NCBI GenBank assembly: GCA_964564035.1
Contig: CAZLZN010000006.1
Location: forward strand, 1 to 55,393
DNA: 55,393 nt
Reading direction: 5' to 3'
From: an uncultured Gammaproteobacteria bacterium
GTDB taxonomy: Bacteria; Patescibacteriota; Microgenomatia; Levybacterales; UBA12049
Numbering within the stretch: position 1 is the first letter of the stretch; each line of letters starts with the position of its first letter. Below the pieces are notes generated by a model. The model made no database searches and was not told the DNA's origin. It was given only the letters and a program-made list of their open reading frames with translations. Position numbers and translations under genes: made by a program. Shown piece by piece: positions 8,833 to 49,814 of this stretch.

Positions 8833-9639
8833 ATGCATAAATTAAATAAGGTAAATTTACTCGATATCGGTATCACGAGTGAGAATGAAGCAAATATCCT
8901 GGAGTATATATACTCAAGCCTGAAAGAAAACCATAAAAAGTACTACATCGTTACACCAAACCCTGAGATAATTGTGCATGCCGTAGATCGCCCGGATTAC
9001 AAAAAGATCATAAATGAGGCTGAGATTGCATTACCCGACGGTGTGGGTGTTTTCATCGCCGCCGGACTGTCCGGAAAGATCATAAAACAGAGGATCACAG
9101 GTGTTGACTTCATGGAAACCATATGCAAACTCAGCGAGAATCGGCCTATTGCCGCGGGCTTTTTGGGCGGAATGGACGGGGTAGCAGAGTTGACCGCCGA
9201 CTGCTTAATCTCTAGGTACCCATGGCTGAAGATCGTCTTCGTAGCTGAGGAATGGGGGGAGAAGGGATTTAAAAATGCAGAAAAGTATCAGGTATCAAGT
9301 ATTAAGTATAAAGAAAATAACGGCAGTAAAATACATAATACAAAATACACGATACATAATACTGGTATCGATATCCTCTTCGTTGCCTTCGGACACCCCA
9401 AGCAGGAAGAGTGGATCTATAACAATTTGGACAAACTCCCGGTCCGTATCGCTATGGGTGTCGGCGGGGCGTTCGATTATGTCAGCGGCTACAAAAAGCG
9501 TGCGCCGTTTATGATCCGCGCGATGGGTTTCGAGTGGTTATATAGACTTATCAAAGAACCCTGGCGCTGGAAGAGACAGCTCGCGCTCTTCAAATTTATC
9601 TGGCTTTTCATTAAAAGCATATTTAAACATAGTAATTAG
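8833..9639 (+). CDS. WecG/TagA/CpsF-family glycosyltransferase
   Basis: LPDGVGV, GFLGG, ILFVAFGHPKQEEWI and GVGGAFDYVSGYKKRAPFMIRAMGFEWLYRLIKEPWRW are characteristic family blocks. It carries an unusual low-complexity loop (see findings). Confidence 0.85.
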   Translation: MHKLNKVNLLDIGITSENEANILEYIYSSLKENHKKYYIVTPNPEIIVHAVDRPDYKKIINEAEIALPDGVGVFIAAGLSGKIIKQRITGVDFMETICKLSENRPIAAGFLGGMDGVAELTADCLISRYPWLKIVFVAEEWGEKGFKNAEKYQVSSIKYKENNGSKIHNTKYTIHNTGIDILFVAFGHPKQEEWIYNNLDKLPVRIAMGVGGAFDYVSGYKKRAPFMIRAMGFEWLYRLIKEPWRWKRQLALFKFIWLFIKSIFKHSN

Positions 9640-14387: not shown

Positions 14388-15488
14388 ATGAAAATTGCAA
14401 TTATCGGATCTATCTGGCTTGACACGCCTCCAAAAGGATATGGCGGAACCGAAGACGTGATCTACAATCTCGTTCAGGGCTTATCTGCCGCCGGCCACGA
14501 TGTGACGCTTTTTGCCCCCAAAACCGCCAAGGTCAATGCGAGACTGATCCCGACAGTCGACAAACCGCTTAGATCATTCAACGTCAGTTGGGAAAACAGC
14601 AGTTATCCGCTTTATCATATTACGGAGGTTTTCGACCGCGCCCGGGAGTTCGATATCATACATATGCATCTTAACAAATCATCAGATCTGGCCGGTTTAC
14701 CACTTGCTGTTTTATCCAAAACGCCCGTTGTCTCAACGCTACACTTCAAAGTCTTCCCCCGCACTGAGCGTGAAGACCAGTATATTTTACTCAAAAAATA
14801 CCGAGAACTCCCATACGTCTCAATTTCAAACGCCCAGCGCAAACCAAACGACCTCAACTATGTCGCGACTGTCTACAACGGCGTAGATCTGAAAAAGTAC
14901 CCGTATTCCGATATCAATGGCAAATATTTGGCATGGCTCGGCAAAATTAATCCGGTCAAAGGTACCAAAGAGGCAATTATTGCAGCCAAAAAAGCCGGTA
15001 TCAAGATTTATGTGATGGGGCCGATTGATCAGGGAGTGCCCAGTATGTTATCATACTATGAAAACGAGGTAAAACCTCTCCTTGACGAGAAAACGGTTGT
15101 TTATCTGGGCGAAGTTTCTCACAACGAGAAAACCAGTATATTGTCAGGCGCGATGTGTCTTTTGAATCCGATCTTGTGGGAAGAGCCGTTCGGACTCGTG
15201 ATGACGGAAGCACAGGCAACAGGGACGCCCGTTATTGCTTTCGGCAGGGGAGCGGCGCCGGAGGTTATTTTGGAGGACAGAACCGGTTTTATAGTAAATA
15301 ATATTGATCAGATGGCGGCTCGTATTAAAAAAGTAAGCGCCCTCGAAAGAAGTGAAGCGAGGCAATGGATTGAAGAAAACTTTACGACAGACAAAATGAT
15401 CAAAGATTACGAGGCCGTATACGAGAAAGTTATTAAAAATTGGGACAAATATAGATCTGACCAAATCAAACTAATAAAAACTTTATAA
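14388..15488 (+). CDS. Glycosyltransferase family 4 (paralog of 13162..14280)
   Basis: MKIAIIGSIWLDTPPKGYGGTE... and LNPILWEEPFGLVMTEAQATGTPVIAF. I prefer ATG 14388 over the upstream TTG 14376. Confidence 0.85.
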   Translation: MKIAIIGSIWLDTPPKGYGGTEDVIYNLVQGLSAAGHDVTLFAPKTAKVNARLIPTVDKPLRSFNVSWENSSYPLYHITEVFDRAREFDIIHMHLNKSSDLAGLPLAVLSKTPVVSTLHFKVFPRTEREDQYILLKKYRELPYVSISNAQRKPNDLNYVATVYNGVDLKKYPYSDINGKYLAWLGKINPVKGTKEAIIAAKKAGIKIYVMGPIDQGVPSMLSYYENEVKPLLDEKTVVYLGEVSHNEKTSILSGAMCLLNPILWEEPFGLVMTEAQATGTPVIAFGRGAAPEVILEDRTGFIVNNIDQMAARIKKVSALERSEARQWIEENFTTDKMIKDYEAVYEKVIKNWDKYRSDQIKLIKTL

Positions 15489-15512
15489 CTTTATAACTTT
15501 ATAACTTTACAA
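15481..15512. repeat. Four tandem CTTTAYAA octamers
   Basis: ctttataa x3 plus ctttacaa. The array starts inside the last codons and stop of the GT4 gene and ends 7 nt before the otsA ATG. Confidence 0.9.
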
Positions 15513-15519
15513 CTAACTT

Positions 15520-33008: not shown

Positions 33009-33055
33009 AATTTATTTGTCTTCAAGTCTAAAGTCTCCATGTCATCAAGTCATTA

Positions 33056-33087
33056 CTTTATAACTTTACGACTTTATAACTTTATGA
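33056..33087. repeat. Four tandem CTTTAYRA octamers between rplK and rplA
   Basis: ctttataa ctttacga ctttataa ctttatga. Preceded by the 7-8-nt periodic words caagtc taaagtc tccatgtc atcaagtc. Confidence 0.9.
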
Positions 33088-33088
33088 C

Positions 33089-33511
33089 TTATTTAACCTC
33101 CACTCCCATGCTTCTTGCTGTGCCCGCGACGATTCTCGCGCCCATAGCAATATCATCTGTATTCAAGTCTTCAAGTTTGTCTTTGGCAATCTGTTCGGCT
33201 TGAGCCATAGACAGAATACCTGCTTTTTCTTTACCCGGCTTTTGTGAGCCTTTTTCTTTGCTGATAGCTTTTTTGATCATCTCGGCAACCGGAGGCTTTT
33301 TAGTTATAAAACTAAATGTCCTGTCAACATAAACCGATATAACAACCGGGAGCACATTGCCTTTCATTTTCTCGGTTCGGGCATTGAATTCTTTCACAAA
33401 CTCCATAATAGGAAGTCCGTGCTGACCCAGAGCAGGTCCGACCGGCGGAGCTGGAGTTGCTTCTCCGGCTTTTATATTTAATTTTATAAGTGTTTTAATT
33501 TTCTTCGCCAT
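33089..33511 (-). CDS. rplK: 50S ribosomal protein L11
   Basis: IKLNIKAGEATPAPPVGPALGQHGLPIMEFVKEFN... is the canonical L11 N-terminal domain. Confidence 0.95.
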   Translation of the reverse strand: MAKKIKTLIKLNIKAGEATPAPPVGPALGQHGLPIMEFVKEFNARTEKMKGNVLPVVISVYVDRTFSFITKKPPVAEMIKKAISKEKGSQKPGKEKAGILSMAQAEQIAKDKLEDLNTDDIAMGARIVAGTARSMGVEVK

Positions 33512-33515
33512 ACTT

Positions 33516-33590
33516 TAGGTTTTAGGGGTTAGGTTCTAGGTTTTAGGCAAATTTACTAAGCCCTAATCCCTAAATACCAAGCCCTGATTA
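33516..33590. repeat. Palindromic pair of heptamer arrays (5 x TAGGNNN, 5-nt spacer, 5 x CYNANNN in inverse orientation)
   Basis: taggttt taggggt taggttc taggttt taggcaa / atttа-like spacer / ctaagcc ctaatcc ctaaata ccaagcc ctgatta. It fills the nusG-rplK spacer and overlaps the nusG stop codon. Confidence 0.8.
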
Positions 33591-39407: not shown

Positions 39408-39932
39408 ATGAAAAACTCGATCGCATCCAAATTTGCATACCTCGCCGCTTTAGCTTTCATTGCCGCTATTATCACATCGTCAGTTTTGCTTCCGCCTGAA
39501 ACATATACAGGCCAGCCGCCGCTGTCTGTCATATTATCGGTAAGCTTTTTTATTATTTTCCATCTCGCTATGCTCCCGGTGATATCTGCGCTCCGTGCGC
39601 CCGACTGGGCAAAAACCTCGGGGATTATCTGGGTCGCAATCGACAATATGCTCGAGATGATGTCGTTTTTCGGAGTAGCAGGAGAACTTATTATACCTAT
39701 GAGGTGGGGGATTCATCTGGCGACGGCAACCTGGCTTATCGGAGTAGGACTCGAGCACCGGGGATTTTTCCGAATATTTAGTTTTATTGTCGCCGCCCTC
39801 CTGATCGCGGTCACACTTGCCGGGCCTTTTCTTGAGAGATCGGCCGTTGCACAGACTCTCGGTGCCGCCGGAGTACCATTCATAATCTGGATCTTCACCG
39901 CGGGCTTCAAATTGAACAAAGGCTACAAATAA
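39408..39932 (+). CDS. Hypothetical polytopic membrane protein (174 aa)
   Basis: Several clear hydrophobic helices. Preferred over the overlapping minus ORF 39380..39646. Confidence 0.5.
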   Translation: MKNSIASKFAYLAALAFIAAIITSSVLLPPETYTGQPPLSVILSVSFFIIFHLAMLPVISALRAPDWAKTSGIIWVAIDNMLEMMSFFGVAGELIIPMRWGIHLATATWLIGVGLEHRGFFRIFSFIVAALLIAVTLAGPFLERSAVAQTLGAAGVPFIIWIFTAGFKLNKGYK

Positions 39933-39952
39933 TTTTTGACTCTAATTGTAGA

Positions 39953-40669
39953 TCAGTGACCATGTCTAAGCCTCTTCACGGTTTTCCACAATATATATAA
40001 ATCAAAACCAAGGCTGGCGTGTTTGATATAAAATCTGTCATGATGATATCTGAGGTCATCCCTCTTTAAATTATTCCCCCTGGCTTGGTGCAAGCCTGTC
40101 AATCCCGGCAATGCGGTAGAATATAACTTTTTATAATTTTTATATCTTTCCTCCGACCAAACTTCTTTTAAATACCGCATACCATTAGTGCTCATCGGTC
40201 TGATGCCGGATATCGACATGTGTCCGGAAGCTATTTGGAATAATTGCGGAAGCTCATCCAATCCGTATTTTCTTAGCACTCTACCTAGTCTGGTAGCTCT
40301 GGGATCTTCATGGCCTGCTTTCCCCTTAACTGCCTGCGCGGTGTCTTTTTGTTTATCTGCGTCTTCATGCATAGAACGGATCTTATATACATCTAAACGC
40401 CCGAATTGACCGGAACGTTTTTGTTTATAAAAAACACTCCCACCGTCCTCTAGTTTTTTCGCCATTCCCAAAACAGTAATAGCGGGAGTACAAATAATAG
40501 ACGCAGGTATAGATACTGCTAAGTCCAGTACTCTTTTTCTTTTACTATTGAGATATTCTTTGCCCGGACTAGAGGAGAGGTGACTCACGGCGCGCCCGAG
40601 CAGAGTATCAGGTCTTCTTAGATACTTGTCGGCCGGTGTGTTCTGCTGTGCGTAATTATATCTCTCCAC
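39953..40669 (-). CDS. Undecaprenyl-phosphate sugar phosphotransferase (bacterial sugar transferase, WbaP/EpsL-type)
   Basis: RVLDLAVSIPASII..., GGSVFYKQKRSGQFGRLDVYKIRSM, and DPRATRLGRVLRKYGLDELPQLFQIASGHMSISGIRP are classic family blocks. GTG start. Confidence 0.85.
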   Translation of the reverse strand: MERYNYAQQNTPADKYLRRPDTLLGRAVSHLSSSPGKEYLNSKRKRVLDLAVSIPASIICTPAITVLGMAKKLEDGGSVFYKQKRSGQFGRLDVYKIRSMHEDADKQKDTAQAVKGKAGHEDPRATRLGRVLRKYGLDELPQLFQIASGHMSISGIRPMSTNGMRYLKEVWSEERYKNYKKLYSTALPGLTGLHQARGNNLKRDDLRYHHDRFYIKHASLGFDLYILWKTVKRLRHGH

Positions 40670-40810
40670 ACGTAGATTATACTATAAATATAATAATATA
40701 ATCAATTAATAATATACATAAAAGCAGGAGTTTAGTGCTTATTCATCAGCCCGCATATCTATATTCAATTTGCTGACTGTTTCTCTCCCTACCGCGCTAT
40801 ACCGAGACAA

Positions 40811-40839
40811 CTGCGGAGAGGGGGGGCGATATTGGAACT
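40811..40839 (-). pseudogene. Decayed remnant of a tRNA-Ser 3' end (T arm + acceptor + 3' flank)
   Basis: + strand ctgcggagagggggggcgatattggaact versus ctgcggaaggggcgagattcgaact at the live tRNA-Ser (43169-43193). The shared flank is ctgc. The remnant has a G-run expansion and 2-3 substitutions. Its acceptor (minus strand cctctcc) is exactly complementary to the 5' fragment at 43556..43591 (ggagagg). Confidence 0.45.
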
Positions 40840-40876
40840 TTTATGGCTCACAATACCGCCTTATAAATTTTACAAT

Positions 40877-41347
40877 TTACTTCTTACGCCGTTTATAAAT
40901 AAGCTCAATAAACTTATCAGTCATAAATATAGAATTCGTCATCTCATATAAAGCATAAAGATATAATAAAGACAAATAAACACTAGCGTATTTTAGAAAG
41001 TACGCAGTATTTTTTATTAGAATGGATGAATTTGAGTCTACTTTAGGAATTCCAATTAAAATTACAAACTGTATTAAAAAGAGCACCATCATTAAATATA
41101 TATTTTTTCTAATTTCTTTTTTAGTTTCACTAAATATTAATTTATTTTTTTGACTCTCAATATTAGTAAAATAACCAACTAGAAATATTGAAGATGCTAT
41201 ATTAAGCCCCAATAATAGCCCCATTATCTGAAGTGACTGGTTTTTAATATAATCTATTAAAAATCCATTCCCGATATATAGGTCAATTATTATTATTGGT
41301 ATCTCTGCTATGAGTATTAGAAATAATAAGCCAATTAATCTAACCAT
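40877..41347 (-). CDS. Hypothetical 4-TM membrane protein (156 aa from ATG 41347)
   Basis: Four long hydrophobic helices and a Lys/Arg-rich C-terminus. ATG 41347 overlaps the upstream stop by 8 nt (aATGgtTAG), suggesting translational coupling. Confidence 0.55.
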   Translation of the reverse strand: MVRLIGLLFLILIAEIPIIIIDLYIGNGFLIDYIKNQSLQIMGLLLGLNIASSIFLVGYFTNIESQKNKLIFSETKKEIRKNIYLMMVLFLIQFVILIGIPKVDSNSSILIKNTAYFLKYASVYLSLLYLYALYEMTNSIFMTDKFIELIYKRRKK

Positions 41348-42176
41348 TAAATATTTTATTAAAAAAATCCTTAACTGTTTGAGGGTCGGTAGTTGCCAAA
41401 TCAACATCTAAATCTAGTTCTATAGATTTTATTTTTTGTTCACTACTTATAATTTTTGACCTTATACCACCTTTAATCTTAAATTTGAATTCTCCTCCTC
41501 CTTTAGTAATATATTCAACCCCTTCTTTAATTAATCTATTATTCTTGGGAATTTTTAAATTCGCATTTTTATTAACTAATGATACCCCAGTGTTAGTAAT
41601 GCCAAATTCTTCCTGCAAATTTTTCAGGTCTTCATTTAATGTATTTATTATATTCAATAAATTAGGTGCGGCAAAAAATAAATCCAGCTCCTCTATATTT
41701 CCTTCATTCTGTTCGACAATTTTCCAAAAATCATACTCTTTAGTTACTGGATTAATTGTAGCTACGAGGCCATGCTGTAGTAGTTTATTATTTATTTTAT
41801 TAATGAATTCCTGTAATTGCTTGAGTGGTTGTTGAAAAATAGACCTTTTATACTCGAAAGCAATCATTTGTCCATTTTCAGGATTTTCACCAATATTTAT
41901 AAAGACCATGCAATTTGGCCAATCTTCCTCTTTTTCTTTTTTGAAGTTTTTTTCAGGAGATGCATGCTTTACTATGCTTGATTTTTTACCTATTTTGGCA
42001 AAAATATAATCGCCTTCAGACCTTTCATAGGTATATGCCAATTTTGATCCTCTATAATCGAAATAATAAGTCTTTTCCAGTAATTTCCGCATTAATTCCT
42101 TTTTGCTTGTTTCAGGAGCAAAAAGAATTTGTTGAGCAGTTTTATTAACAAAATACCTAAATAATAATATTCTCAT
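41340..42176 (-). CDS. Hypothetical protein (278 aa), no recognisable domain
   Basis: Long ORF in very AT-rich DNA. Lys/Asn/Glu-rich. Confidence 0.6.
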   Translation of the reverse strand: MRILLFRYFVNKTAQQILFAPETSKKELMRKLLEKTYYFDYRGSKLAYTYERSEGDYIFAKIGKKSSIVKHASPEKNFKKEKEEDWPNCMVFINIGENPENGQMIAFEYKRSIFQQPLKQLQEFINKINNKLLQHGLVATINPVTKEYDFWKIVEQNEGNIEELDLFFAAPNLLNIINTLNEDLKNLQEEFGITNTGVSLVNKNANLKIPKNNRLIKEGVEYITKGGGEFKFKIKGGIRSKIISSEQKIKSIELDLDVDLATTDPQTVKDFFNKIFNG

Positions 42177-42256
42177 ATATTTGCCTCAGCTTTAGCGGTA
42201 ATTTTACCATAAAGACGAAAATAATTCATTGTATTGTTGTAATACGGGGCTAAATT

Positions 42257-42724
42257 CTATTTAATAAATTCTGTTAATAGAAAAGAATAAGCTAATTGTA
42301 TCTCTTTTTTTATCCAACTCTCTTTTAATTCTTCTATTTCACCATTCCGGTCAATAAGTGAACTACAAGGAGAAAAATAAAATTTGTTTTTTGAAGCAAG
42401 GAAAAGAAAACATGGATTCCATGTAGCGTTTATTTTGTTTGCAATATCCAGAACATCTTGTTTATCAAATTGTGATCTATATTTTACTTCTACGAGATAA
42501 ACGCTTTGTTTGTCTTGTGATACTAATGCAAAATCTGGCGCATTTCGGATATTTTGCAGAACTTTTTGTACATGCAGATGATGCTGATATTGAGCAAGCA
42601 TAGGCGTTGTATGTTCATAGCCTAATGGAATAATTGTAAATTCCTCAGTAGAGCGGAACATTTCTTCAAAAATTAGCTCTGTAATTTTCCCCTTTATTAA
42701 GTTTCTCGAAAAACTTATATCCAT
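42257..42724 (-). CDS. Small PD-(D/E)xK-like nuclease-fold protein (tentative)
   Basis: GKITELIFEEMF (motif I Glu), then ...NAPDFALVS...SVYLVEVKYRS (P-D ... E-V-K spacing typical of restriction-endonuclease-like folds). Confidence 0.45.
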   Translation of the reverse strand: MDISFSRNLIKGKITELIFEEMFRSTEEFTIIPLGYEHTTPMLAQYQHHLHVQKVLQNIRNAPDFALVSQDKQSVYLVEVKYRSQFDKQDVLDIANKINATWNPCFLFLASKNKFYFSPCSSLIDRNGEIEELKESWIKKEIQLAYSFLLTEFIK

Positions 42725-42809
42725 ATATTAATTGTAACAGCTTATTACATTACTCATCTAGCTATTTAATAAACGCCCCTTCAGAAACGCCCCTCCCAAG
42801 CCGGATTCG

Positions 42810-43088
42810 TTATATTAAAGAAATTTTTTCTTCATTTTTGAAATAAGTTTTTAACATAGCTTTTAGACTGCGCAGGCCATATCCGGATTTAAGGTATTCT
42901 TCGCGGTTTTTTGCATCAGTTTCGTTTAAAAAGGCTTCGTAGCATATTAATTTATAAGGGATGTATGGTTTGGAAGCGGCGTTTTTGCCGGCATTATGTG
43001 ATTCAAGTCTAATTCTCAAGTTAGTCGAGTAACCAATATATAATTTTTTATAATTTACGCTTTGAAGGACATATGTATAGTAGAACAT
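42810..43088 (-). CDS. Small GIY-YIG nuclease-family protein (#1)
   Basis: MFYYTYVLQS..KKLYIGYSTNLRIRLESHNAGK...YYEAF..ETDAKNREEYLKSGYG shows the GIY...YIG, Arg and Glu elements of the URI/GIY-YIG domain. Confidence 0.85.
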   Translation of the reverse strand: MFYYTYVLQSVNYKKLYIGYSTNLRIRLESHNAGKNAASKPYIPYKLICYEAFLNETDAKNREEYLKSGYGLRSLKAMLKTYFKNEEKISLI

Positions 43089-43097
43089 AGTGAAGGC

Positions 43098-43172
43098 GAG
43101 ACGTAATAAATTTGCTATGCAAATTTAAACGTCTCAGCAGCGTTGAAATTGCTATGCAATTTCTTACGCTGC
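43098..43172. repeat. Two tandem 36-38-nt near-perfect palindromes
   Basis: gagacgt-aat-aaatttgc-tat-gcaaattt-aa-acgtctc (43098-43135) and gcagcgt-tg-aaattgc-tat-gcaattt-ctt-acgctgc (43137-43172). The outer stems differ but stay complementary within each unit. Confidence 0.8.
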
Positions 43173-43258
43173 GGAAGGGGCGAGATTCGAACTCGCGGTA
43201 GGCTTGCACCCACAGATGTTTTCAAGACATCCGCACTAGACCACTATGCGACCCTTCC
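43172..43258 (-). tRNA. tRNA-Ser (anticodon UGA), type II with long variable arm
   Basis: Minus strand: acceptor ggaaggg/cccttcc, 3-bp D stem, anticodon arm gatgt-ctTGAaa-acatc, long variable arm (tgtgggtgcaagcctacc), T arm gcgag-ttcgaat-ctcgc, discriminator G. 87 nt. Confidence 0.85.
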
Positions 43259-43259
43259 A

Positions 43260-43514
43260 TTATACTTTTGCGCCATTTTCCAGCAAATACTTTATTCTTT
43301 CTCTTCCTTTGCCGGTTTTTAAAAAATTTTCTTCTCGTAAAGCATCAGTCTTATTTATAAAAGCTTCATAATAAATTAGCCTCCAAGGTTTACCGTATTT
43401 GGTTGAGCGAACTTTTCCTTTATTATGATCTTTAATTCTTTCTTTTAAATCATCTGAGCTTCCTTTATATAACTCGCCAGTAATTTTGCTTTTTAAGATA
43501 TAAACGTAATGCAT
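43260..43514 (-). CDS. Small GIY-YIG nuclease-family protein (#2)
   Basis: MHYVYILKSKITGELYKGSSDDLKERIKDHNKGK...YYEAF..KTDALREENFLKTGKG. Its stop codon lies 1 nt before the first nucleotide of tRNA-Ser. Confidence 0.85.
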   Translation of the reverse strand: MHYVYILKSKITGELYKGSSDDLKERIKDHNKGKVRSTKYGKPWRLIYYEAFINKTDALREENFLKTGKGRERIKYLLENGAKV

Positions 43515-43524
43515 TATAAGGTTT

Positions 43525-43555
43525 TTCCGCCCAAGGCGGATCAGCCTCGGGCTGA
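43525..43555. repeat. Double hairpin, copy B (ttccgcc-caa-ggcgga / tcagcc-tcg-ggctga)
   Basis: Same stems as 43844..43878, with different loops. It lies between tRNA fragment B and the start of GIY-YIG #2. Confidence 0.8.
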
Positions 43556-43591
43556 CAAGACATCCGCACTAGACCACTATGCGACCTCTCC
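43556..43591 (-). pseudogene. tRNA-Ser 5' half fragment B (nt 1-36, ending inside the anticodon)
   Basis: + strand caagacatccgcactagaccactatgcgacctctcc versus 43223-43258 caagacatccgcactagaccactatgcgacccttcc: 34/36 identical, with both differences in the acceptor arm. The last four codons and the TAG stop of GIY-YIG #3 are encoded by fragment nt 1-15. Confidence 0.75.
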
Positions 43592-43837
43592 AAAGTAATT
43601 TTTTAACTTTCCCTTTAGTATTTCTCTTCCGTGCCCGGTTTTAAAATATTTTTCCGCATTTTGAGCATCCTTTTTATTTAAATAAGCTTCATAAAAGACC
43701 AATTTAAATTCACCGTTTCTTTTTGTAAAATCTGAATCGCCACGCTCATGCTCTCGAATCCTTCGCTTTAGGTCCGAACAAAACCCTTTGTATAACTTTT
43801 TATTCTTTATGAATTCTAAAACGTAAAAATAATACAT
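43577..43837 (-). CDS. Small GIY-YIG nuclease-family protein (#3)
   Basis: MYYFYVLEFIKNKKLYKGFCSDLKRRIREHERG...FYEAYLNKKDAQNAEKYFKTGHG. ATG 43837 is preferred over the upstream GTG 43843. Confidence 0.85.
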   Translation of the reverse strand: MYYFYVLEFIKNKKLYKGFCSDLKRRIREHERGDSDFTKRNGEFKLVFYEAYLNKKDAQNAEKYFKTGHGREILKGKLKNYFGEVA

Positions 43838-43843
43838 TTTCAC

Positions 43844-43878
43844 TTCCGCCTCTTCGGCGGATCAGCCGTAGAGGCTGA
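43844..43878. repeat. Double hairpin, copy A (ttccgcc-tcttc-ggcgga / tcagcc-gtaga-ggctga)
   Basis: Stems identical to copy B. It lies between tRNA fragment A and the start of GIY-YIG #3. Confidence 0.8.
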
Positions 43879-43891
43879 ATGCGACCCTTCC
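43879..43891 (-). pseudogene. tRNA-Ser 5' fragment A (nt 1-13)
   Basis: + strand atgcgacccttcc equals 43246-43258 exactly, and the next upstream base (a) is also shared. The match is short, so it could be chance, but it sits in the same relative position as fragment B. Confidence 0.4.
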
Positions 43892-44007
43892 AAGAGCGAA
43901 AAACTAAAAAAGAAAAACTTAAAAAAATCTTAGCATTTCTTGCGCGCGTAGCTATTTTAGCAAAAATAGGGGATTGATGCGAATGACAAATTATTACTGT
44001 ATTTGTG

Positions 44008-44035
44008 TTGATAAATATAAGTGAAGTGATATAAT
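44008..44035 (+). promoter_or_regulatory. Sigma70-like promoter candidate for the GH15 gene
   Basis: TTGATA (44008-44013), 16-nt spacer, TATAAT (44030-44035). Confidence 0.3.
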
Positions 44036-44088
44036 GCATTAAATAATTGCTATAGGACTTATAATTAGTTTGATTGGCAATAAATAAT

Positions 44089-46839
44089 ATGCATGAACGC
44101 GAAAATTTGCGACAACAAAGGACAGTGGATAGGCGAGATGTAAAGGAACCGAAGATGCAAGGTGTCCGCTCGCGCGTTCATGTCGAGCCCGTTACGGATT
44201 ACCGTGCTGGATTCGCCACGAAAGAGTCAGGCATCAATTCTTACCGAGATTCTTCGGCACCAAAAGATCTTTCCCGGCGCTCTTTTCTTTCAGGCATTAC
44301 GGCATCAATCAGCGCAAATATTTTACCGCCGGTATCTTTTCGGGCACTCGCAGAAGTCGAAAAAAACCATGACAACAAGCCTGTTCAAATTGATAATGCC
44401 TCCCCGGCACTGGCTTCCTTCCCCAGCGAAGATGCCTGGCTGAAAGCGTGGGTTCCGCGATTGCTTGAGCAAAAGAGGATTGATGTCCTAAATGCCCGGA
44501 AAATCCTTGCATTGCATTCGGAGGCGAACATCAAACAATTAGAAGCGGCAGTTTTTAATCTTGATCATTATTTGCGCATGGCTTCTGTAAATATGCTTGC
44601 TTACCGGCAGGAGAGCGAGGTGCTCTTGCGTGTCTTGGGATCAAAAGACGCACACGAGTATCCATCGGCAGAACCCGATGTTCGTATCACGGCGGTGCGG
44701 GCATATACAAAGTCCGGCGGGACCCTGGAGGAACTCCTCGTCAGGCCGCTCGATCTGGATGAGCAGATAGACCGGGAGATAACGGACCTAGCCGTTAGCA
44801 CGTGCGATGCCGGCAAATTGATGAGTTTGATTAAGCGTTACCCGCATCGCCAGGAATTCTTGCGCGTTGGACTTGCCGGGCTTTTGGTGCGTGAGCGGCA
44901 GGGTTCTAAAGAATCAGCAGTCATGTCGGTCTCGGAGGCCGGTTTTCCAATGGCAAACGGAGTAGCATCTGCCGTTTTTCATCCTGAAACGGGTAGATTG
45001 GAGTTACGCAGTTCGATATTGCACCGGGAGTTTTTAGGTACTCAGTCGGAGACAGTCTCGGATCGCCTGGGTTGGGTTATGAGACAGGATGGCAAAGAAC
45101 TGTCTTTTAAATCCGCATTAACCAAAAATTATATGGATGAGACTCCTATCATCCAAGTTGAACAATCTCTGGGAAATACCGGCGGCAAAGTAAATTATTA
45201 TTATTTTGTCCCGTTTGCTGCATCAAGGACTGAAGACCGCGAAGCCTCATTGGTAATGCTGGCACATGTTGAGGCGCCTCCAGGTACAGACGACATTCTC
45301 GAACTCGAAGCGGCCCCGTGTATCAACCCCCGGGCTTTCTCAACCCGTCTTCCCGATAGACAGGTTTCAAACGGCAATTTCTGGCGGGGCACTGTCATTT
45401 CGGTTGATAATAAGCAAACCCAATACGCCGGAACGGATCCTGAGCAATTACTGGCCAAGGAGCATGCGTTTTGGCACAGGGTGCGCGAGCGTGTCCAAAT
45501 GCCCGAGGGAATGAACGAAGGTGAACGTGAACTATATATTAGGTCATATAACACCCTGCTTATGGGCCAGCATCCGGATGGTCCCGTAGTAGCCAGCTTA
45601 CCTCCGGCTGATGCATATCGGATTCCCTGGGTTCGAGATATGACTTACGCTATGCAGGCTATGCTTTCGGCCGGATTGCAGGATGAGTTCGAGAGGGGAG
45701 CGGCGTTTCTTTTCAGTCCGGAAGTGCGTACATACGGCCCGGATAGCGATTATTTCCGGTTCAGGGGAGCTTTCAGGGGAACACAGATGCCTCGTACAGT
45801 TTCTCTTGTGCGTTATGATCGATATGCTGACAAGCAAGGTAAATTGCGCTGGACGGAGAGTTGTGATCCGATTAACGAGGATATAAATGGTAATGGTGGT
45901 GATAATAACCGCAACGTAGAATTTGATGGTTTAGGCTTGGCGTTACACTCCTTAGGCAAATACGTATCGATAGCTAGGGAGCGGGGCTGGGACATGCGTC
46001 GTGTAGAAGTTTTTTTGCGTGAACATTGGGATGCAGCAAGTTTATACACGGCGGATGTATTAACCGATGAACTATTAGATCCCCGGTATGGACTAATAAA
46101 ACCTGATTCGGGATTTTCCGAAAGACATCATCCCGGCAGATGGTATGCATATACATCTGTCACCGCTGCAGTAGGACTGCGTGAGGCCTCAGAAGTTGCC
46201 GGTATGCTTGGCGACACAGCCCGGCAGAAGAAATATGCAAATGCCGCCGAACGCATCAAAGATGGAGTATTGAAACATCTCGTGACGCGTTCAGAAGCGG
46301 GGGATCTGACGATTCGCGCGACACTTGATGACACAAATCTCATTACAGGTATGGAAGCCCTTTCGCTTGAGGCCATCACTCTTGGCTTTCTCAACCTGAA
46401 AGACCCGGAAGAATATCAACTTGCAAAGGGGATTATTCGTACAACTGATGAACATCTTACATTTCCGGGAACGCCGGGGACCCGCCGGGCAACGGTCACG
46501 GAATGGATGGGGTTGACCGACTGGTTTTTTGCAGATTTGCGCAAAGCAACCGCGCTCTTTATGATGAGCCGGGAACGCATTCAATCCGGCGATCCCAAGG
46601 AAGGAATTCCGATGCTCGCGCGAGGCGAGGAAATTATGGACTGGGTTGGTTCATGGGCGAGGGCTCATCATGGGATGATAGGTGAACAGGTCGGGTTTGA
46701 TTACCGGGATCCGAGGTCTCTTGTATATACGAACATCAATATGGTCGGTTACGGCGGCGGGATATATATTATGGCCATGGAAGCTATGAAGCAGGCACAG
46801 TCCGTCGACTCAGGCAATCGTTTTAAGCTAAGGGATTAA
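44089..46839 (+). CDS. Glycoside hydrolase family 15-like protein (glucoamylase/trehalase-type (alpha/alpha)6 barrel) with twin-arginine-like signal
   Basis: DLSRRSFLSGITASI resembles a Tat motif (S-R-R-x-F-L). YIRSYNTLLMGQHPDGPVVASLP...YRIPWVRDMTYAMQAML is the GH15 pattern (W-x-R-D). The gene is markedly more GC-rich than its neighbours. ATG 44089 is preferred over TTG 44074, but the true start is uncertain. Confidence 0.75.
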   Translation: MHERENLRQQRTVDRRDVKEPKMQGVRSRVHVEPVTDYRAGFATKESGINSYRDSSAPKDLSRRSFLSGITASISANILPPVSFRALAEVEKNHDNKPVQIDNASPALASFPSEDAWLKAWVPRLLEQKRIDVLNARKILALHSEANIKQLEAAVFNLDHYLRMASVNMLAYRQESEVLLRVLGSKDAHEYPSAEPDVRITAVRAYTKSGGTLEELLVRPLDLDEQIDREITDLAVSTCDAGKLMSLIKRYPHRQEFLRVGLAGLLVRERQGSKESAVMSVSEAGFPMANGVASAVFHPETGRLELRSSILHREFLGTQSETVSDRLGWVMRQDGKELSFKSALTKNYMDETPIIQVEQSLGNTGGKVNYYYFVPFAASRTEDREASLVMLAHVEAPPGTDDILELEAAPCINPRAFSTRLPDRQVSNGNFWRGTVISVDNKQTQYAGTDPEQLLAKEHAFWHRVRERVQMPEGMNEGERELYIRSYNTLLMGQHPDGPVVASLPPADAYRIPWVRDMTYAMQAMLSAGLQDEFERGAAFLFSPEVRTYGPDSDYFRFRGAFRGTQMPRTVSLVRYDRYADKQGKLRWTESCDPINEDINGNGGDNNRNVEFDGLGLALHSLGKYVSIARERGWDMRRVEVFLREHWDAASLYTADVLTDELLDPRYGLIKPDSGFSERHHPGRWYAYTSVTAAVGLREASEVAGMLGDTARQKKYANAAERIKDGVLKHLVTRSEAGDLTIRATLDDTNLITGMEALSLEAITLGFLNLKDPEEYQLAKGIIRTTDEHLTFPGTPGTRRATVTEWMGLTDWFFADLRKATALFMMSRERIQSGDPKEGIPMLARGEEIMDWVGSWARAHHGMIGEQVGFDYRDPRSLVYTNINMVGYGGGIYIMAMEAMKQAQSVDSGNRFKLRD

Positions 46840-46955
46840 GTCAAAGCGCAGGAACAAATTTCGTGAATATAGACTTTTAAAGCGTGAAACCGCTGAGTAT
46901 TTCCTCGGTGAGTTTCAGATATTACCCCAATATTGAGAAATTTAATACTAACCGT

Positions 46956-47282
46956 CTAAAAACCAAGTTTTCGCTTGACCTTGTTATTTAGATACTTATT
47001 TAACTTATCTTTAAAACCTTGGCCTTTTCGTGCATATCTGAACTCATAGCTAACCCCTGGCAATTTGGATCTGAGATTAAAGCCGCCAAGATTATCTACT
47101 TCAAGTCTATTAAATACATGGTCCGCCCCATTTAGCTCGATATGAACTTTATTTGGTGTATATACAGAAACAGTGGCCACCTTTCCCTCCGGAGTCTTAT
47201 ACTTTTTTGGCGTTAAGCCAGGCTCAACAGTTTTTACCCAAATTGTTTGCCCGAACACTTTTGTATCCCTCTCAATAGTCAT
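46956..47282 (-). CDS. Hypothetical protein (108 aa)
   Basis: ORF only. Confidence 0.5.
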   Translation of the reverse strand: MTIERDTKVFGQTIWVKTVEPGLTPKKYKTPEGKVATVSVYTPNKVHIELNGADHVFNRLEVDNLGGFNLRSKLPGVSYEFRYARKGQGFKDKLNKYLNNKVKRKLGF

Positions 47283-47345
47283 AATAGCGGATTTTACTCT
47301 TAAGCTCGGATATTTGCAAGAAGTCAGACAGAATTTGAATTAGAA

Positions 47346-49136
47346 TTATTTTACCGTAACGCTCTTGGCCAGATTTCGCGGCTTATCAGGATCAAGTTTC
47401 TTTTTAACAGCAATAAAATACGCCAGAAGCTGAAGGGGGACAACATGTGTAATAAGCGGTGCTCCTGTCTCGCTGACCTCGATCCACGTATCAAAAGCAG
47501 GATTATTCTCGCTTGAAATCCCGATAATATGTCCGCCGCGCGATCTTATCTCAATCGCGTTTGATATCGTCGCATCATAAGTCTCATCCTTGGGCGCAAT
47601 GACAATAACCGGTGTGCCTTTGGCGACAAGCGCGATCGTTCCATGTTTCAGTTCTCCTCCGGCAAGCCCCTCCGTATGAATATAACTGACTTCTTTGATT
47701 TTCAAAGCGCCTTCAAGGGCTGCGGCATATGAAATTCCCCGCCCGATAATATAGATATGTTCATTGTCCGATAAGAATGACGCAGTATCTTTGATTTTCT
47801 CAATCTGTTTTTTATCAAGCATTTTCAATATAACCTTTACTGCTTTATTTAGTATAGTTTTCGCTTCACCAGGTTTATTTGCCAAAGCAAACGACAGCAT
47901 CATCAGTATCGCGATTTTGGCGATAAACGCTTTTGTGGACGCGACGGCCATTTCCGGCCCGGCGCCGAGTAGTAATTTATAATCACCCATTCTATACACT
48001 GTCGAGCCAAGTACGTTTGTGATCGCGACAATTTTACTGCCCCGCTTTTTGACGTGACTAAGCGGCTCGACCACATCAATCGTCTCTCCGCTTTGCGATA
48101 GGGGAATGATCAGGCTGTCTTTGGTAATAAAATCCTCCAAATAATTAAACTCCGATGCGGGAGCCGTATTTACATGGCGGTGGGCAATTTTTGAAAAAAG
48201 ATAAGTACCGGCGAGACAAGCATTAAAAGCAGTGCCGCATCCTATGAAATAAGTGCCCCGCGCTTTTCTAATCGCTTCAGCTATCTGTTCTATCTGGTCA
48301 CCATATGTATTTGCGATGTTGTTTATGACTCTGGGCTGATCATATATTTCTTTGAGCATAAAATGCTCAAACTTTCCTTTGTCTGCCTGTTCGGCTTTCC
48401 ATTCAATTGTTTCGATCCCCGGAATTTTTTCGGCGCCTGTTTCGAGGTCATATACCTTAAAAATTTTATTGAGCGAAATAAGTTCATTGTCCCTCAGAAA
48501 AATTACTTTTTTCGTAAATGGCAATATCGCGCTGGTGTCAGACGAGATCAGATACTCACCATTGCCGATGCCCGCGATAAGAGGCGAGCCGTTTTTGGCC
48601 GCTACAATTTCCTTATCTAGAGTATTGATCGCGACAATCGCGTTTAGCCCTTTGAGGTTATTGAATGCTTTGCTTACGGCTTCTCGGAATGGCCGGTTCT
48701 GATTTAGAGAATCTTCGATCAAATGCGCTATTACTTCCGTATCCGTATCTGATCTGAATTTGTGCCCTTTTTTAATTAATTTATTTTTAAGCTCCTGATA
48801 ATTCTCAATTATCCCGTTTTGTATCACAGCGACACGCCTCTCGCAGTCAAATTGCGGATGTGCATTTTCGTCTGTTACTCCGCCGTGTGTTGCCCAGCGG
48901 GTATGTCCAATCGCGATAGAATTCGGTGCAGAAAATTTGGGATCTAACTGTGCGCCGCCGATCTTGCCGATGTGTCTTTCATGAATAAATCTGGTTCTGA
49001 TATCATCCCTCTTTGATTTAAGCTGAGCGGCAACTCCCCATGAGTCATACCCTCTGTATTCCAAAAGCTTAAGTCCTTCAAGCACGATATTGGATGCATT
49101 TTCTTTTTTTCCTATATAACCGAATATTCCGCACAT
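47346..49136 (-). CDS. glmS: Glutamine--fructose-6-phosphate aminotransferase (isomerizing)
   Basis: MCGIFGYIG (Ntn Cys), GHTRWATHG, two SIS domains, and C-terminal ...AKSVTVK. Full length. Confidence 0.95.
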   Translation of the reverse strand: MCGIFGYIGKKENASNIVLEGLKLLEYRGYDSWGVAAQLKSKRDDIRTRFIHERHIGKIGGAQLDPKFSAPNSIAIGHTRWATHGGVTDENAHPQFDCERRVAVIQNGIIENYQELKNKLIKKGHKFRSDTDTEVIAHLIEDSLNQNRPFREAVSKAFNNLKGLNAIVAINTLDKEIVAAKNGSPLIAGIGNGEYLISSDTSAILPFTKKVIFLRDNELISLNKIFKVYDLETGAEKIPGIETIEWKAEQADKGKFEHFMLKEIYDQPRVINNIANTYGDQIEQIAEAIRKARGTYFIGCGTAFNACLAGTYLFSKIAHRHVNTAPASEFNYLEDFITKDSLIIPLSQSGETIDVVEPLSHVKKRGSKIVAITNVLGSTVYRMGDYKLLLGAGPEMAVASTKAFIAKIAILMMLSFALANKPGEAKTILNKAVKVILKMLDKKQIEKIKDTASFLSDNEHIYIIGRGISYAAALEGALKIKEVSYIHTEGLAGGELKHGTIALVAKGTPVIVIAPKDETYDATISNAIEIRSRGGHIIGISSENNPAFDTWIEVSETGAPLITHVVPLQLLAYFIAVKKKLDPDKPRNLAKSVTVK

Positions 49137-49271
49137 TTATGAAATCAATTCTAGTTTTAGTCATATCGAAAGTCAACAGCTTAAATATACTTTTGAACTT
49201 GTTCGTGGTTGTAGTATATGTTAATATAGTTGATATTTGGCGGCACAGAATGTGCCAGCCGCGTTTGACGC

Positions 49272-49343
49272 GGCGCGGTGGCGAAGTGGTAACGCAGCTG
49301 TCTGCAGAACAGCCATTCACCGGTTCGAATCCGGTTCGCGCCT
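49272..49343 (+). tRNA. tRNA-Cys (anticodon GCA)
   Basis: Acceptor ggcgcgg/tcgcgcc, anticodon arm gctgt-ctGCAga-acagc, T arm accgg-ttcgaat-ccggt, discriminator U (as expected for Cys). 72 nt. Two small GC hairpins lie immediately upstream (ggcaca-gaa-tgtgcc; gccgcg-tttga-cgcggc). Confidence 0.85.
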
Positions 49344-49350
49344 CTATAAT

Positions 49351-49409
49351 TAGGGCTTAGGGCTTAGGGCTTAGGGCTTAGGGCTTAGGGCTTAGGGCTT
49401 AGGGCTTAG
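49351..49409. repeat. Perfect tandem array: 8 x TAGGGCT (= TTAGGGC) plus partial unit
   Basis: Counted directly: 56 nt of exact heptamers from 49351 to 49406, then tag. The array begins 7 nt after the tRNA-Cys 3' end. Confidence 0.95.
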
Positions 49410-49814
49410 TATTAAGTATTTCCGCTCTCACTTTTTGACATACCTTTCACTTCAAAACGAGACTCTCAGATCTTCACTAAATTGTAACTGCTCACTGGAC
49501 TTTCAAAAATTGTCATTGTACAGGATTAATACCGCGATTTGATCCTATGAGAAGAAATTCCAAATTCAAAGCACCAAATAACAAATAATATCAAAATACA
49601 AATAATTAAATCCACAATTTATTTTGACTGCGTAATATGCGAATTTGATATTTGAATTTATATATTTGGTTTTATTTGTAATTTGTAATTTTGGATTTGT
49701 AATTTAATTTATTAACCAGAATGACATTTGTCATAGATTGTGATAAAAGCCAAAGAGCACTTACACTGAATTAATTTGACTATTTATAGTTTTTAGACTA
49801 TATTGCGGGTACAT

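Follow-up and report, generated by a model that had tools for sequence, protein, structure and literature searches.

A tRNA-Ser(UGA) locus in the 55-kb window studied here (the whole stretch of DNA analysed, 55,393 nucleotides (nt)) carries small GIY-YIG nuclease genes on its minus strand, stacked between 5′ fragments of the same tRNA gene, with a pair of hairpins set inside each fragment. The best explanation for this locus is that it comprises two stacked selfish cassettes of a kind found widely in Patescibacteria, together with a third of a sister type. The stack of GIY-YIG genes and tRNA fragments, described in an earlier note on this DNA, is confirmed once its placement of the hairpins is corrected, and that note's interpretation is partly supported. 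As to how such cassettes spread, we propose a homing-type mechanism—with a UPF0213/SLX1-like nuclease, break repair, and the tRNA acting as portable homology—to which we would give an even chance of being right.

We read the minus strand of 42600-44700 and numbered the open reading frames (ORFs) such that GIY-YIG #3 is outermost, GIY-YIG #2 lies just 5′ of the intact tRNA-Ser, and GIY-YIG #1 lies 3′ of it. The order then runs from an upstream flank through tRNA-Ser nt 1-13, a double hairpin, nt 14-17, and GIY-YIG #3 to tRNA nt 1-36, a second double hairpin, nt 37-41, and GIY-YIG #2, followed by 1 nt (T), the intact tRNA-Ser(UGA), a hairpin pair of a different type, and GIY-YIG #1:

43891..43879, minus strand: partial tRNA copy A, first piece (GGAAGGGTCGCAT), exactly tRNA-Ser nt 1-13
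43878..43845, two-hairpin fold: hairpin pair A, in the D loop of copy A (TCAGCCtctacGGCTGA TCCGCCgaagaGGCGGA)
43841..43844, minus strand: partial tRNA copy A, second piece, AGTG, tRNA nt 14-17
43577..43837, minus strand: GIY-YIG #3, 86 amino acids (aa) from ATG, Pfam PF01541 at 47.4 bits
43591..43556, minus strand: partial tRNA copy B, first piece (GGAGAGGTCGCATAGTGGTCTAGTGCGGATGTCTTG), tRNA-Ser nt 1-36 with 34/36 identical
43555..43526, two-hairpin fold: hairpin pair B, in the anticodon loop of copy B (TCAGCCcgaGGCTGA TCCGCCttgGGCGGA)
43521..43525, minus strand: partial tRNA copy B, second piece, AAAAC, tRNA nt 37-41
43514..43260, minus strand: GIY-YIG #2, 84 aa, stop codon TAA 1 nt before the tRNA, Pfam at 55.6 bits
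43258..43171 (end 43171/43172), minus strand: intact tRNA-Ser(UGA), by ARAGORN and by Rfam (tRNA, 56.2 bits)
43170..43098, minus strand: hairpin pair of a second type (two long AT-rich stem-loops), separating the tRNA 3′ end from GIY-YIG #1
43088..42810, minus strand: GIY-YIG #1, 92 aa, Pfam at 51.3 bits

From fragment A to the intact tRNA, and apart from the short tRNA pieces after the hairpins, this order is the one given in the earlier note, and it is borne out by ARAGORN, Rfam, Pfam, and pattern matches, with ARAGORN and Rfam calling a single intact tRNA at the locus and an Rfam scan of 42000-44500 passing the tRNA alone (other hits fall far under gathering scores). The two tRNA fragments that the note reported are likewise better than chance: within the window, the 36-mer (≤3 mismatches) and the 13-mer (exact) match only at the live gene and at their own fragment, and 100 shuffles give an expectation of 0 matches for either pattern. 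The window holds no extra match to the tRNA 3′ part, such that the repeated pieces are 5′ only. Also as the note had it, the last four codons and stop of GIY-YIG #3 (GEVA*) are encoded within fragment B, with the stop codon TAG at nt 13-15 of the fragment and an overlap of 15 nt, and the intact tRNA-Ser begins 1 nt after the stop of GIY-YIG #2.

The hairpins, on the other hand, had been taken as the boundary between cassette and fragment, with fragment B breaking between anticodon positions 2 and 3. That position is real and marks the hairpin insertion point: tRNA sequence picks up directly after each hairpin pair, with AGTG after A and AAAAC after B, so the partial copies span nt 1-17 and nt 1-41, each interrupted by hairpins. 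The double hairpin is instead a separate 30-bp palindromic mini-element seated within a partial tRNA copy, and is dispersed elsewhere. Pair A reads TCAGCC-tctac-GGCTGA plus TCCGCC-gaaga-GGCGGA and belongs with the 30-nt pairs of related loci, and pair B reads TCAGCC-cga-GGCTGA plus TCCGCC-ttg-GGCGGA, with an identical pair in the collected contig L013 (L numbers denote collected contigs and loci). Between AGTG and the ATG of GIY-YIG #3 lies aaa (an alternative GTG start at 43843 would give 88 aa), and between AAAAC and the ATG of GIY-YIG #2 lies cttata. Copy B differs from the live tRNA-Ser only at nt 4-5 (GGAGAGG vs. GGAAGGG), where copy A agrees with the live gene; against the live 3′ strand CCCTTCC, GGAGAGG has one mispaired position, and fragment B is either a foreign allele or a drifted copy. 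The AT-rich pair at 43098..43170 folds as DNA at -29.2 kcal/mol (z = -9.6), and the same type precedes a relative in L060, with which GIY-YIG #1 clusters in a different clade located 3′ of tRNA genes.

Independent assemblies cover nearly all of the locus. A contig in ENA from another sample (L221) covers 43508..42711 at 99.9% identity and confirms the junction between GIY-YIG #2 and the tRNA, while Logan contigs of several runs, at 99.6-100% identity, take in 43557..49421 and 43252..39811. The 86-aa GIY-YIG #3 gene is also called on independent Logan contigs, and the GIY-YIG #1 region is supported by independent contigs L219-L221. The Logan contigs break exactly at a 31-nt exact repeat common to fragment B and tRNA-Ser, as is expected of an assembler with k=31. 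The earlier note's concern that the stack could be an assembly artefact is thus met by independent contigs at the other junctions, with 43509-43556 (48 nt around hairpin pair B) the sole stretch lacking one.

All three window proteins score above the curated Pfam cutoff for GIY-YIG (22.6 bits), and an alignment of 22 sequences including these three shows invariant Y3, Y5, Y16, G18, R26, H30, and E62, residues which we take to be catalytic (two Tyr motifs, the Arg, and the metal-binding Glu). The proteins are 79-92 aa long and consist only of a ~75-aa catalytic domain, with a second domain absent. Among structures in PDB, the family profile matches the UPF0213 proteins 1zg2 (BH0048; E = 1e-10) and 1ywl (EF2693; E = 9e-7) best and SLX1 more weakly (E = 7e-4 to 6e-3), and the NCBIfam match to group I intron endonucleases is sub-threshold only. 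GIY-YIG #2 has 217 homologues of 79-90 aa, mostly from metagenome-assembled genomes of Patescibacteria, several of which end in ...GEVA or ...GGVA, implying that those ORFs also run into the 5′ end of a tRNA-Ser. The ratio of nonsynonymous to synonymous substitution rates (dN/dS) in close pairs is 0.02-0.13, indicating purifying selection; the GIY-YIG ORFs are working genes and not relics. GIY-YIG #2 and #3 are merely 42% identical to each other. Viral contigs returned one weak GIY hit and no hairpin hit, leaving phage carriage unsupported, and a Pfam search of the cassette ORFs and their neighbours found no recombinase or integrase domain, only GIY-YIG and a weak TnsA-N-like hit nearby.

A survey of relatives for small GIY-YIG ORFs accompanied by tRNA 5′ fragments and hairpins, which the earlier note had suggested, found that the architecture recurs (80 loci). 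We scanned one genome per species, yielding at least 577 relatives (among the matches listed, 577 of 599 candidate stretches encode one), and analysed the best 80 loci together with the window, for a total of 94 GIY-YIG ORFs. A tRNA on the same strand starts within -70..+130 nt of the stop codon in 74 of these 94, most often within -15..+20, and many of the ORFs with no adjoining tRNA lie at contig ends; ORFs end anywhere from ~58 nt inside the tRNA to 20 nt ahead of its nt 1. The adjoining tRNA is mostly Ser (TGA, CGA, GCT, GGA), with Tyr, Asp, Thr, Glu, Cys, Lys, and Gly also represented, and even close GIY-YIG relatives adjoin tRNAs for Ser (all four anticodons), Tyr, Asp, Thr, Cys, and Glu.

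A perfect double hairpin lies ≤130 nt upstream of the GIY-YIG ORF in 67 of the 94 cases. Of the 68 loci where a tRNA adjoins the ORF, 48 have a 5′ prefix of this tRNA (score ≥10) upstream, abutting the hairpins, compared with 1.5% in random controls. The hairpins break the tRNA copy where the cloverleaf is unpaired (nt 8, 12-14, 21-23, 34-36, taking in the D and anticodon loops; the T loop in cases on the tRNA 3′ side), after which the tRNA resumes at the very next nucleotide for 5-12 nt (~0.3 nt by chance) and the GIY-YIG ATG follows a few nt beyond. At least 11 single-cassette loci have an ORF that extends 15 nt into the live tRNA, just as GIY-YIG #3 extends into fragment B. Stacks like that of the window are present at L030, L051, L066, L077, and L209, two or three hairpin inserts interrupt one partial copy at L025, L070, and L036, and hairpins are nested in the loops of other hairpins at L059, L062, and L067. 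The idea that protein clade fixes the break position was rejected, as both positions and tRNA identity are mixed among close relatives. GIY-YIG cassettes at tRNA 5′ ends in Patescibacteria are not described in the literature searched, which is not proof of absence; the arrangement is widespread and apparently new to that literature.

Mirror-image cases occur on the 3′ side of tRNAs, in which an intact tRNA is followed by 1-16 nt, then 4-15 nt of tRNA, a hairpin pair occupying the anticodon-loop or T-loop position, and a complete displaced 3′ part (L005 3356-3455, L009 3365-3470, L053 3366-3470, L001 1525-1590, L007 3300-3370; further examples at L043, L049, L128, L147, L149, L162). Separately, ORF-less inserts of ~150-200 nt lie directly 3′ of tRNAs and end in a displaced tRNA 3′ end (nt ~68-88), as at L014 3358-3530, L025, L042, L048, L059, L027, L062, L068, L077, and L210 from 3476. 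These contain a conserved hairpin with the loop 'ctgc' (e.g., GCAAActgcTTTGC) that matches no Rfam family, and one such insert is a presence/absence difference between L209 and L210. A group I intron (Rfam, 77 bits) also adjoins a tRNA gene on a Patescibacteria contig (L053 5702-5941).

The hairpin pair itself is, judging from its sequence and distribution, a dispersed palindromic mini-element in its own right. From 48 distinct 30-nt versions we obtained the consensus YCNGCC-CRA-GGCNGR YCNGCC-TNG-GGCNGR, describing two hairpins with 6-bp stems, in which both partners have changed, with pairing kept, in 11 of 12 stem pairs; as instances were picked for perfect stems, this covariation is informative and the percentage paired is not. 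One long hairpin in place of two finds no support in the covariation. Scanning JGI metagenomes for one exact version of the motif, we found at least 120 loci, of which about a dozen of the 120 listed sit at tRNA fragments and 52 lie inside long ORFs, nearly always in the frame that reads SAQGG(S/P)ALGG. In-frame examples among L088-L207 include L113 1458-1488, L105, L107, and L138, which resemble the inserts of Rickettsia palindromic elements (RPE). The flanks are symmetric, with T at -2 in 82/116 copies and A at +2 in 87/116. Target-site duplication is generally absent, with abutting repeats in 8/116 copies; a 7-8-nt duplication was rejected, as these 8 sit in tandem-repeat arrays of 7-8 nt, a common feature of such intergenic DNA, the window included.

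In all GIY-YIG clades, a hairpin pair lies 10-20 nt ahead of the ATG, taking the form of long nested hairpins in a sister clade and of AT-rich hairpins in the GIY-YIG #1 clade. The GIY-YIG gene is the only ORF linked to the hairpin pair, with no HUH (Y1) transposase linked to it. An Rfam search of 12 related loci found no family for hairpins or fragments, and the notion that the hairpins form a ribozyme, riboswitch, or known RNA drew no Rfam support, with a hammerhead core misfitting by inspection. The literature searched does not describe this element. Within the 55-kb window, no hairpin pair occurs away from the cassettes except one of a different type at tRNA-Cys, where two adjacent hairpins (49242-49274; GGCACAgaaTGTGCC a GCCGCGtttgaCGCGGC, with GGC ahead) overlap the first 3 nt of the gene (49272-49344) and no GIY-YIG ORF lies alongside. 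This type also follows a tRNA 3′ end at L013 3900-3935. Directly 3′ of the tRNA-Cys lies a perfect heptamer array, TTAGGGC x 8.6 (49350-49409), and other intergenic arrays of 7-8-nt period are located at 9283-9362, 15479-15514, 33055-33090, 33514-33547, and 49674-49705; similar short-period arrays flank hairpin pairs in metagenome contigs.

Signs of movement are found in related contigs. L009 and L010 are syntenic. Identity between them is 75-80% in the flanking genes, ~97% in the fragment, hairpins, and leader, 90% in the ORF (dS = 0.40), and only 82% in the intact tRNAs. The fragment in L010 corresponds to its own tRNA (36/36), while the fragment in L009 corresponds to the L010 tRNA and matches its own at 30/36; downstream of its intact tRNA, L009 retains TCTTG|hairpins|nt 37-88 of the old allele. 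At L009 3385-5120 (vs. L010 ~2033-2040), a 1.75-kb segment specific to L009 begins with a hairpin pair and a tRNA-Ser 3′ half, adjoins a native TCTTG resembling the anticodon loop, and is flanked by imperfect 15-nt repeats (GATAATTGTGTCTTG / GATAATTTAATCTTA); it looks like a one-ended transfer starting at the hairpin pair. Fragments of tRNA-Ser(CGA) type, very unlike the adjoining gene, occur in L011 and L013, such that foreign tRNA alleles stand beside cassettes in L009/L010, L011, L013, and the L209 family, in a direction of transfer that the sequences do not fix.

The L209 family comprises at least 24 contigs that are 99.3-99.9% identical and encode an identical 80-aa GIY-YIG protein (GIYa). 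Its module opens with a sigma-70-like promoter (TTGACA-17-TATTCT, upstream of the leader), hairpins, 20 nt plus tRNA nt 1-8, and a further hairpin pair before GIYa; continues with nt 1-31 of an old allele, 18 nt, and an intact tRNA-Ser(TGA) of another allele; and closes with 11 nt, GTCTTG|hairpins|nt 37-88 of the old allele, and a second cassette, this one on tRNA-Ser(GCT). Between the two pieces of the old allele, the acceptor strands (GGAGGCG.../...CGCCTCC) pair together and not with the intact gene. These contigs are polymorphic for a hairpin unit, a 35-nt D-loop hairpin insert, and flanking gene blocks. The 35-nt insert (CCCCGCACCAGAGTAAAGCACGGTACGGGG...), in the D loop of the old tRNA fragment (L212 ~2769-2805; L227 and L230 ~321-355), is present in some and absent from other contigs that are otherwise 99% identical. 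A ~2.2-kb block encoding a sigma-70 factor and two ORFs is similarly present or absent (L224, L213 vs. L209/L222) in otherwise near-identical contigs, its boundary falling exactly at the promoter-side edge of the tRNA-Ser/GIY-YIG module.

Comparing contigs that share the same neighbouring RRM protein, we identified alleles with and without a cassette: L227 and L230 lack GIYa, L222 and L209 carry it, and the flanks are 96-99.7% identical. Where the occupied alleles have 384 nt—hairpins, a 20-nt flank plus nt 1-8, hairpins, leader, GIYa, and 14 nt—the empty ones have 9 nt (AGAGCGATT). The right junction of the segment falls in or at the tRNA copy within 99.7%-identical DNA, and the left junction at the outer edge of the hairpin pair. 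Simple deletion between 8-nt repeats would not produce the L227/L230 sequence, and in this comparison the tRNA fragment arrived together with the cassette. The comparison of empty with occupied tRNA-Ser loci that the earlier note had in view was made for a relative; for the window's own locus, no empty allele was found in JGI metagenomes. Flank matching among all collected loci found no empty/occupied pairs, and a divergence between the L015 and L020 ORFs, considered as a sign of cassette exchange, was not significant (background 4%).

These data refine the picture of repeated insertion that the earlier note had drawn. Serial addition stands, on the geometry of GIY-YIG #3, on old tRNAs split around new ones, and on alleles with and without a cassette. 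Since the stop of GIY-YIG #3 lies in fragment B in the same way that single cassettes end in live tRNAs, fragment B was once the 5′ end of the tRNA belonging to GIY-YIG #3, and the GIY-YIG #2 unit came later, between GIY-YIG #3 and the tRNA body. The further claim, that each insertion regenerates a functional 5′ part and pushes the old one outward, is too simple: often a whole tRNA of another allele is regenerated, and the upstream fragment can come with the incoming DNA (L009/L010, L222/L227). Target-site duplication was also rejected as the source of the fragments, as many of these are different bona fide tRNA alleles.

Under the homing-type mechanism that we propose, the cassette would lack a promoter of its own and would be transcribed from the tRNA promoter as a leader-ORF-tRNA, from which RNase P cleavage would free the tRNA. 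The nuclease would probably start the process by breaking a cassette-free tRNA within its 5′ region or just upstream of it, and the break would then be repaired from a cassette-bearing copy by homing-type repair or gene conversion, with the left partial copy and the right intact tRNA serving as homology arms to any cassette-free copy of that tRNA. Where homology exists on the tRNA side only, copying would run leftward and end at the outer edge of the hairpin pair. In general, the non-tRNA side would be resolved either by using the partial copy as second arm or by end-joining at the hairpin edge; the 9-nt loss in L222 vs. L227 is consistent with the latter. After each event, a partial 5′ copy would lie on the outside and an intact tRNA on the inside, with the ORF between them, and repetition would build the stack seen in the window. 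Hairpin pairs may gather ahead of GIY-YIG start codons either because the nuclease acts on hairpins in cis or because they aid expression.

Several observations sit poorly with this proposal. No DNA-binding module suited to long specific recognition is found in the cassette proteins. The intact tRNA beside each cassette is unaltered and should still be open to cleavage, and the proposal does not account for immunity. Break positions (nt 8, 12-14, 21-23, 34-36) are mixed among close protein relatives, which argues that the protein does not dictate one site and favours structure- or hairpin-directed action, in line with the similarity to SLX1. Simple homing does not predict the regular stretch of 5-7 nt of tRNA that separates the hairpins from the point where homology ends; this stretch may reflect selection for hairpins near the start codon, or a cut made a set distance away from the hairpins. 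Just 8 of the 120 listed hairpin pairs precede a GIY-YIG ORF. Drift could account for the differences of fragment B, which lie at nt 4-5 alone, and a complex deletion could in principle underlie the single empty/occupied pair. The predicted empty site of the window (flank plus intact tRNA) is absent from JGI metagenomes.

The alternatives that fare best centre on the hairpins. We tentatively entertain the possibility, though it is a doubtful one, that the ~80-aa structure-specific GIY-YIG protein and the 30-bp double hairpin form an unrecognised kind of bacterial mobile system, in which the nuclease would cut loop-like or TTN|NAA sites and the hairpin pair would be the cis element copied in, with targets in the loops of tRNA copies and in in-frame positions of protein genes (adding SAQGGSALGG). 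The pair would also set the exact terminus in one-ended transfers of neighbouring DNA, and the nuclease gene would park at tRNA 5′ ends, borrowing a promoter and universal tRNA homology.

A related account, which we consider unlikely, holds that the GIY-YIG protein is a structure-specific nuclease mobilising the hairpin pair as the REP-associated tyrosine transposase (RAYT) does repetitive extragenic palindromic (REP) sequences and REPINs. GIY-YIG genes would then merely reside near tRNAs, and partial tRNA duplications would be by-products of ectopic recombination repairing nuclease breaks at loop or TTN|NAA-like sites. The wide dispersal of the pair (≥120 copies of one exact pattern, 52 of the 120 listed in frame as SAQGGSALGG), its symmetric T and A flanks at -2 and +2, its place just before the ATG in all three GIY-YIG clades, the polymorphic hairpin inserts near GIY-YIG genes in 99%-identical contigs, the nested hairpin-in-hairpin-loop inserts, and the presence of SLX1, a structure-specific nuclease, among the closest solved relatives all fit such an account. 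It is harder to square with the small share of listed dispersed pairs that adjoin a GIY-YIG gene (8/120), with a 55-kb window holding no pair off the cassettes save the different-type pair at tRNA-Cys, and with a strand transfer that goes beyond a hydrolytic nuclease alone, and it leaves the attachment of the ORF to tRNA nt 1 unexplained.

Another reading, which strikes us as improbable, takes the GIY-YIG gene for an ordinary host gene, inherited vertically and transcribed together with tRNA-Ser, and the fragments for immobile, decaying products of local tandem duplication. Strong purifying selection, a position by tRNA-Ser conserved over many lineages, and the syntenic L015 and L020 with the cassette in place would all be expected of such a gene. 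Yet GIY-YIG #2 and #3 are only 42% identical where fragment B and the live tRNA match at 34/36, close relatives adjoin tRNAs of six specificities (Ser with all four anticodons, Tyr, Asp, Thr, Cys, Glu), fragments are often bona fide foreign alleles, the gene is present or absent in near-identical DNA, and the region is a low-GC island. Very improbable, in our view, is an integrase acting in trans on a cassette attachment site (attP) that copies the tRNA 5′ part, the mirror image of 3′-end integration: tRNA direct repeats do flank the insert, and a circularly permuted description fits Campbell-type integration, but the cassettes and their surroundings hold no integrase or recombinase, the repeats differ widely in length and breakpoint and are often heterologous alleles, the cassettes are just ~300 bp, and the family is almost absent from viral contigs. 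An assembly artefact of collapsed or chimeric repeats is scarcely credible, as the 31-nt exact repeat that breaks short-read contigs and the uncovered 43509-43556 are set against independent contigs of several runs at 99.6-100% identity for all other junctions, the private differences of fragment B at nt 4-5, and the same architecture in dozens of unrelated assemblies.

The three GIY-YIG genes of the window fall within a low-GC island (~41000-44000; 27-36% vs. ~42%) that ends at the tRNA-Ser locus. The island also contains a 278-aa ORF (41340-42176) and a 155-aa ORF (42257-42724) whose families are not clear, the latter with a weak TnsA-like endonuclease N-terminal match. On the other side, 44074-46839 encodes a 916/921-aa protein with a short GH15-like stretch, found on ~10 contigs and with no homologue but itself in a database of 5.8 billion proteins; it is adjoined by a glmS-like gene with GATase/SIS domains (47346-49136).

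If the homing-type reading is true, tRNA genes of Patescibacteria have been colonised by a very compact selfish element, in minimal genomes with few redundant tRNAs, that spares its essential target by carrying or regenerating the tRNA, and not by intron splicing or an integrase attachment (att) site. This would extend a strategy known from mitochondrial protein genes to bacteria and to RNA genes, and would provide a first concrete biological context for the large uncharacterised UPF0213 family of stand-alone GIY-YIG proteins. It would also mean that a tiny palindromic element remodels tRNA loci and inserts in frame into proteins of uncultivated bacteria. For practical purposes, these repeats break short-read assemblies at tRNA-Ser loci, the tRNA pseudo-fragments can mislead annotation, and the repeats would cause horizontal exchange of tRNA alleles.

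The earlier note knew of no described element class that behaves in this way; the nearest analogue so far known is found in fungal mitochondria, where mobile ORFs (mORFs) encoding endonucleases bring along the C-terminal part of the host gene in a foreign version and the native part is kept as a duplicate (PMC3630166). The resulting 'gene hybrids' include atp6 of Allomyces macrogynus, a case which that paper cites, along with atp6, atp9, cox2, and nad3 of Glomus (PMC3630166). As in our loci, a host gene harbours an endonuclease ORF (LAGLIDADG or GIY-YIG) that is intron-less, and the gene part brought in, often from a foreign allele, restores function while the native part stays nearby. Among our loci, foreign origin of that part is clear in the relatives L009, L011, L013, and L209. 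In the window, the corresponding ORF, intact tRNA, and displaced 5′ copies are all present, and in L009 and L209 both halves of the old tRNA lie around the new one. The fungal hosts are mitochondrial protein genes whose 3′ (C-terminal) part is duplicated by full-size endonucleases, whereas the cassettes reside at bacterial tRNA genes, duplicate the 5′ part (sometimes the whole tRNA), encode a bare catalytic domain of 80-90 aa, carry a hairpin mini-element in the displaced copy, and stack.

Free-standing GIY-YIG homing endonucleases form a known class (PMC2988022). In T4-like phages they include the Seg proteins, among which SegB is located in a tRNA gene cluster; these are phage-borne and ~200 aa or longer, with DNA-binding domains. 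Their likeness to the cassettes lies in a GIY-YIG gene among or next to tRNA genes, and they spread by double-strand-break repair with co-conversion of flanking markers. They differ in that they are not known to leave duplicated tRNA fragments or to have a hairpin pair, and the cassette family, in turn, is essentially absent from viral contigs. Integrase-borne islands and prophages at tRNA genes share the tRNA target, a replacement part supplied by the element, a displaced partial copy at the far end, and serial insertions that lead to arrays. They duplicate the 3′ part, however, and need a tyrosine integrase and defined att cores, where the cassettes duplicate the 5′ part with variable breakpoints and alleles and no integrase.

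The closest known kin of the hairpin pair, and of the hairpin pair only, are RPE and the REP/REPIN-RAYT systems. Like RPE, it is a short dispersed palindrome tolerated in frame in protein genes, and, like REP-RAYT, its copies flank the gene of a candidate mobilising enzyme. It is distinguished by a length of only 30 nt, two 6-bp-stem hairpins, a preference for the loops of tRNA copies, and a GIY-YIG nuclease as the linked enzyme in place of an HUH/RAYT transposase. By profile match, the protein family itself is that of the stand-alone GIY-YIG proteins of UPF0213/YhbQ type and SLX1. To our knowledge, no mobile-element role, tRNA linkage, or hairpin partner has been described for UPF0213 proteins, and a literature search on UPF0213 returned nothing related. 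Together, these comparisons suggest that the cassette is a variant of a homing-type endonuclease joined to a new palindromic mini-element.

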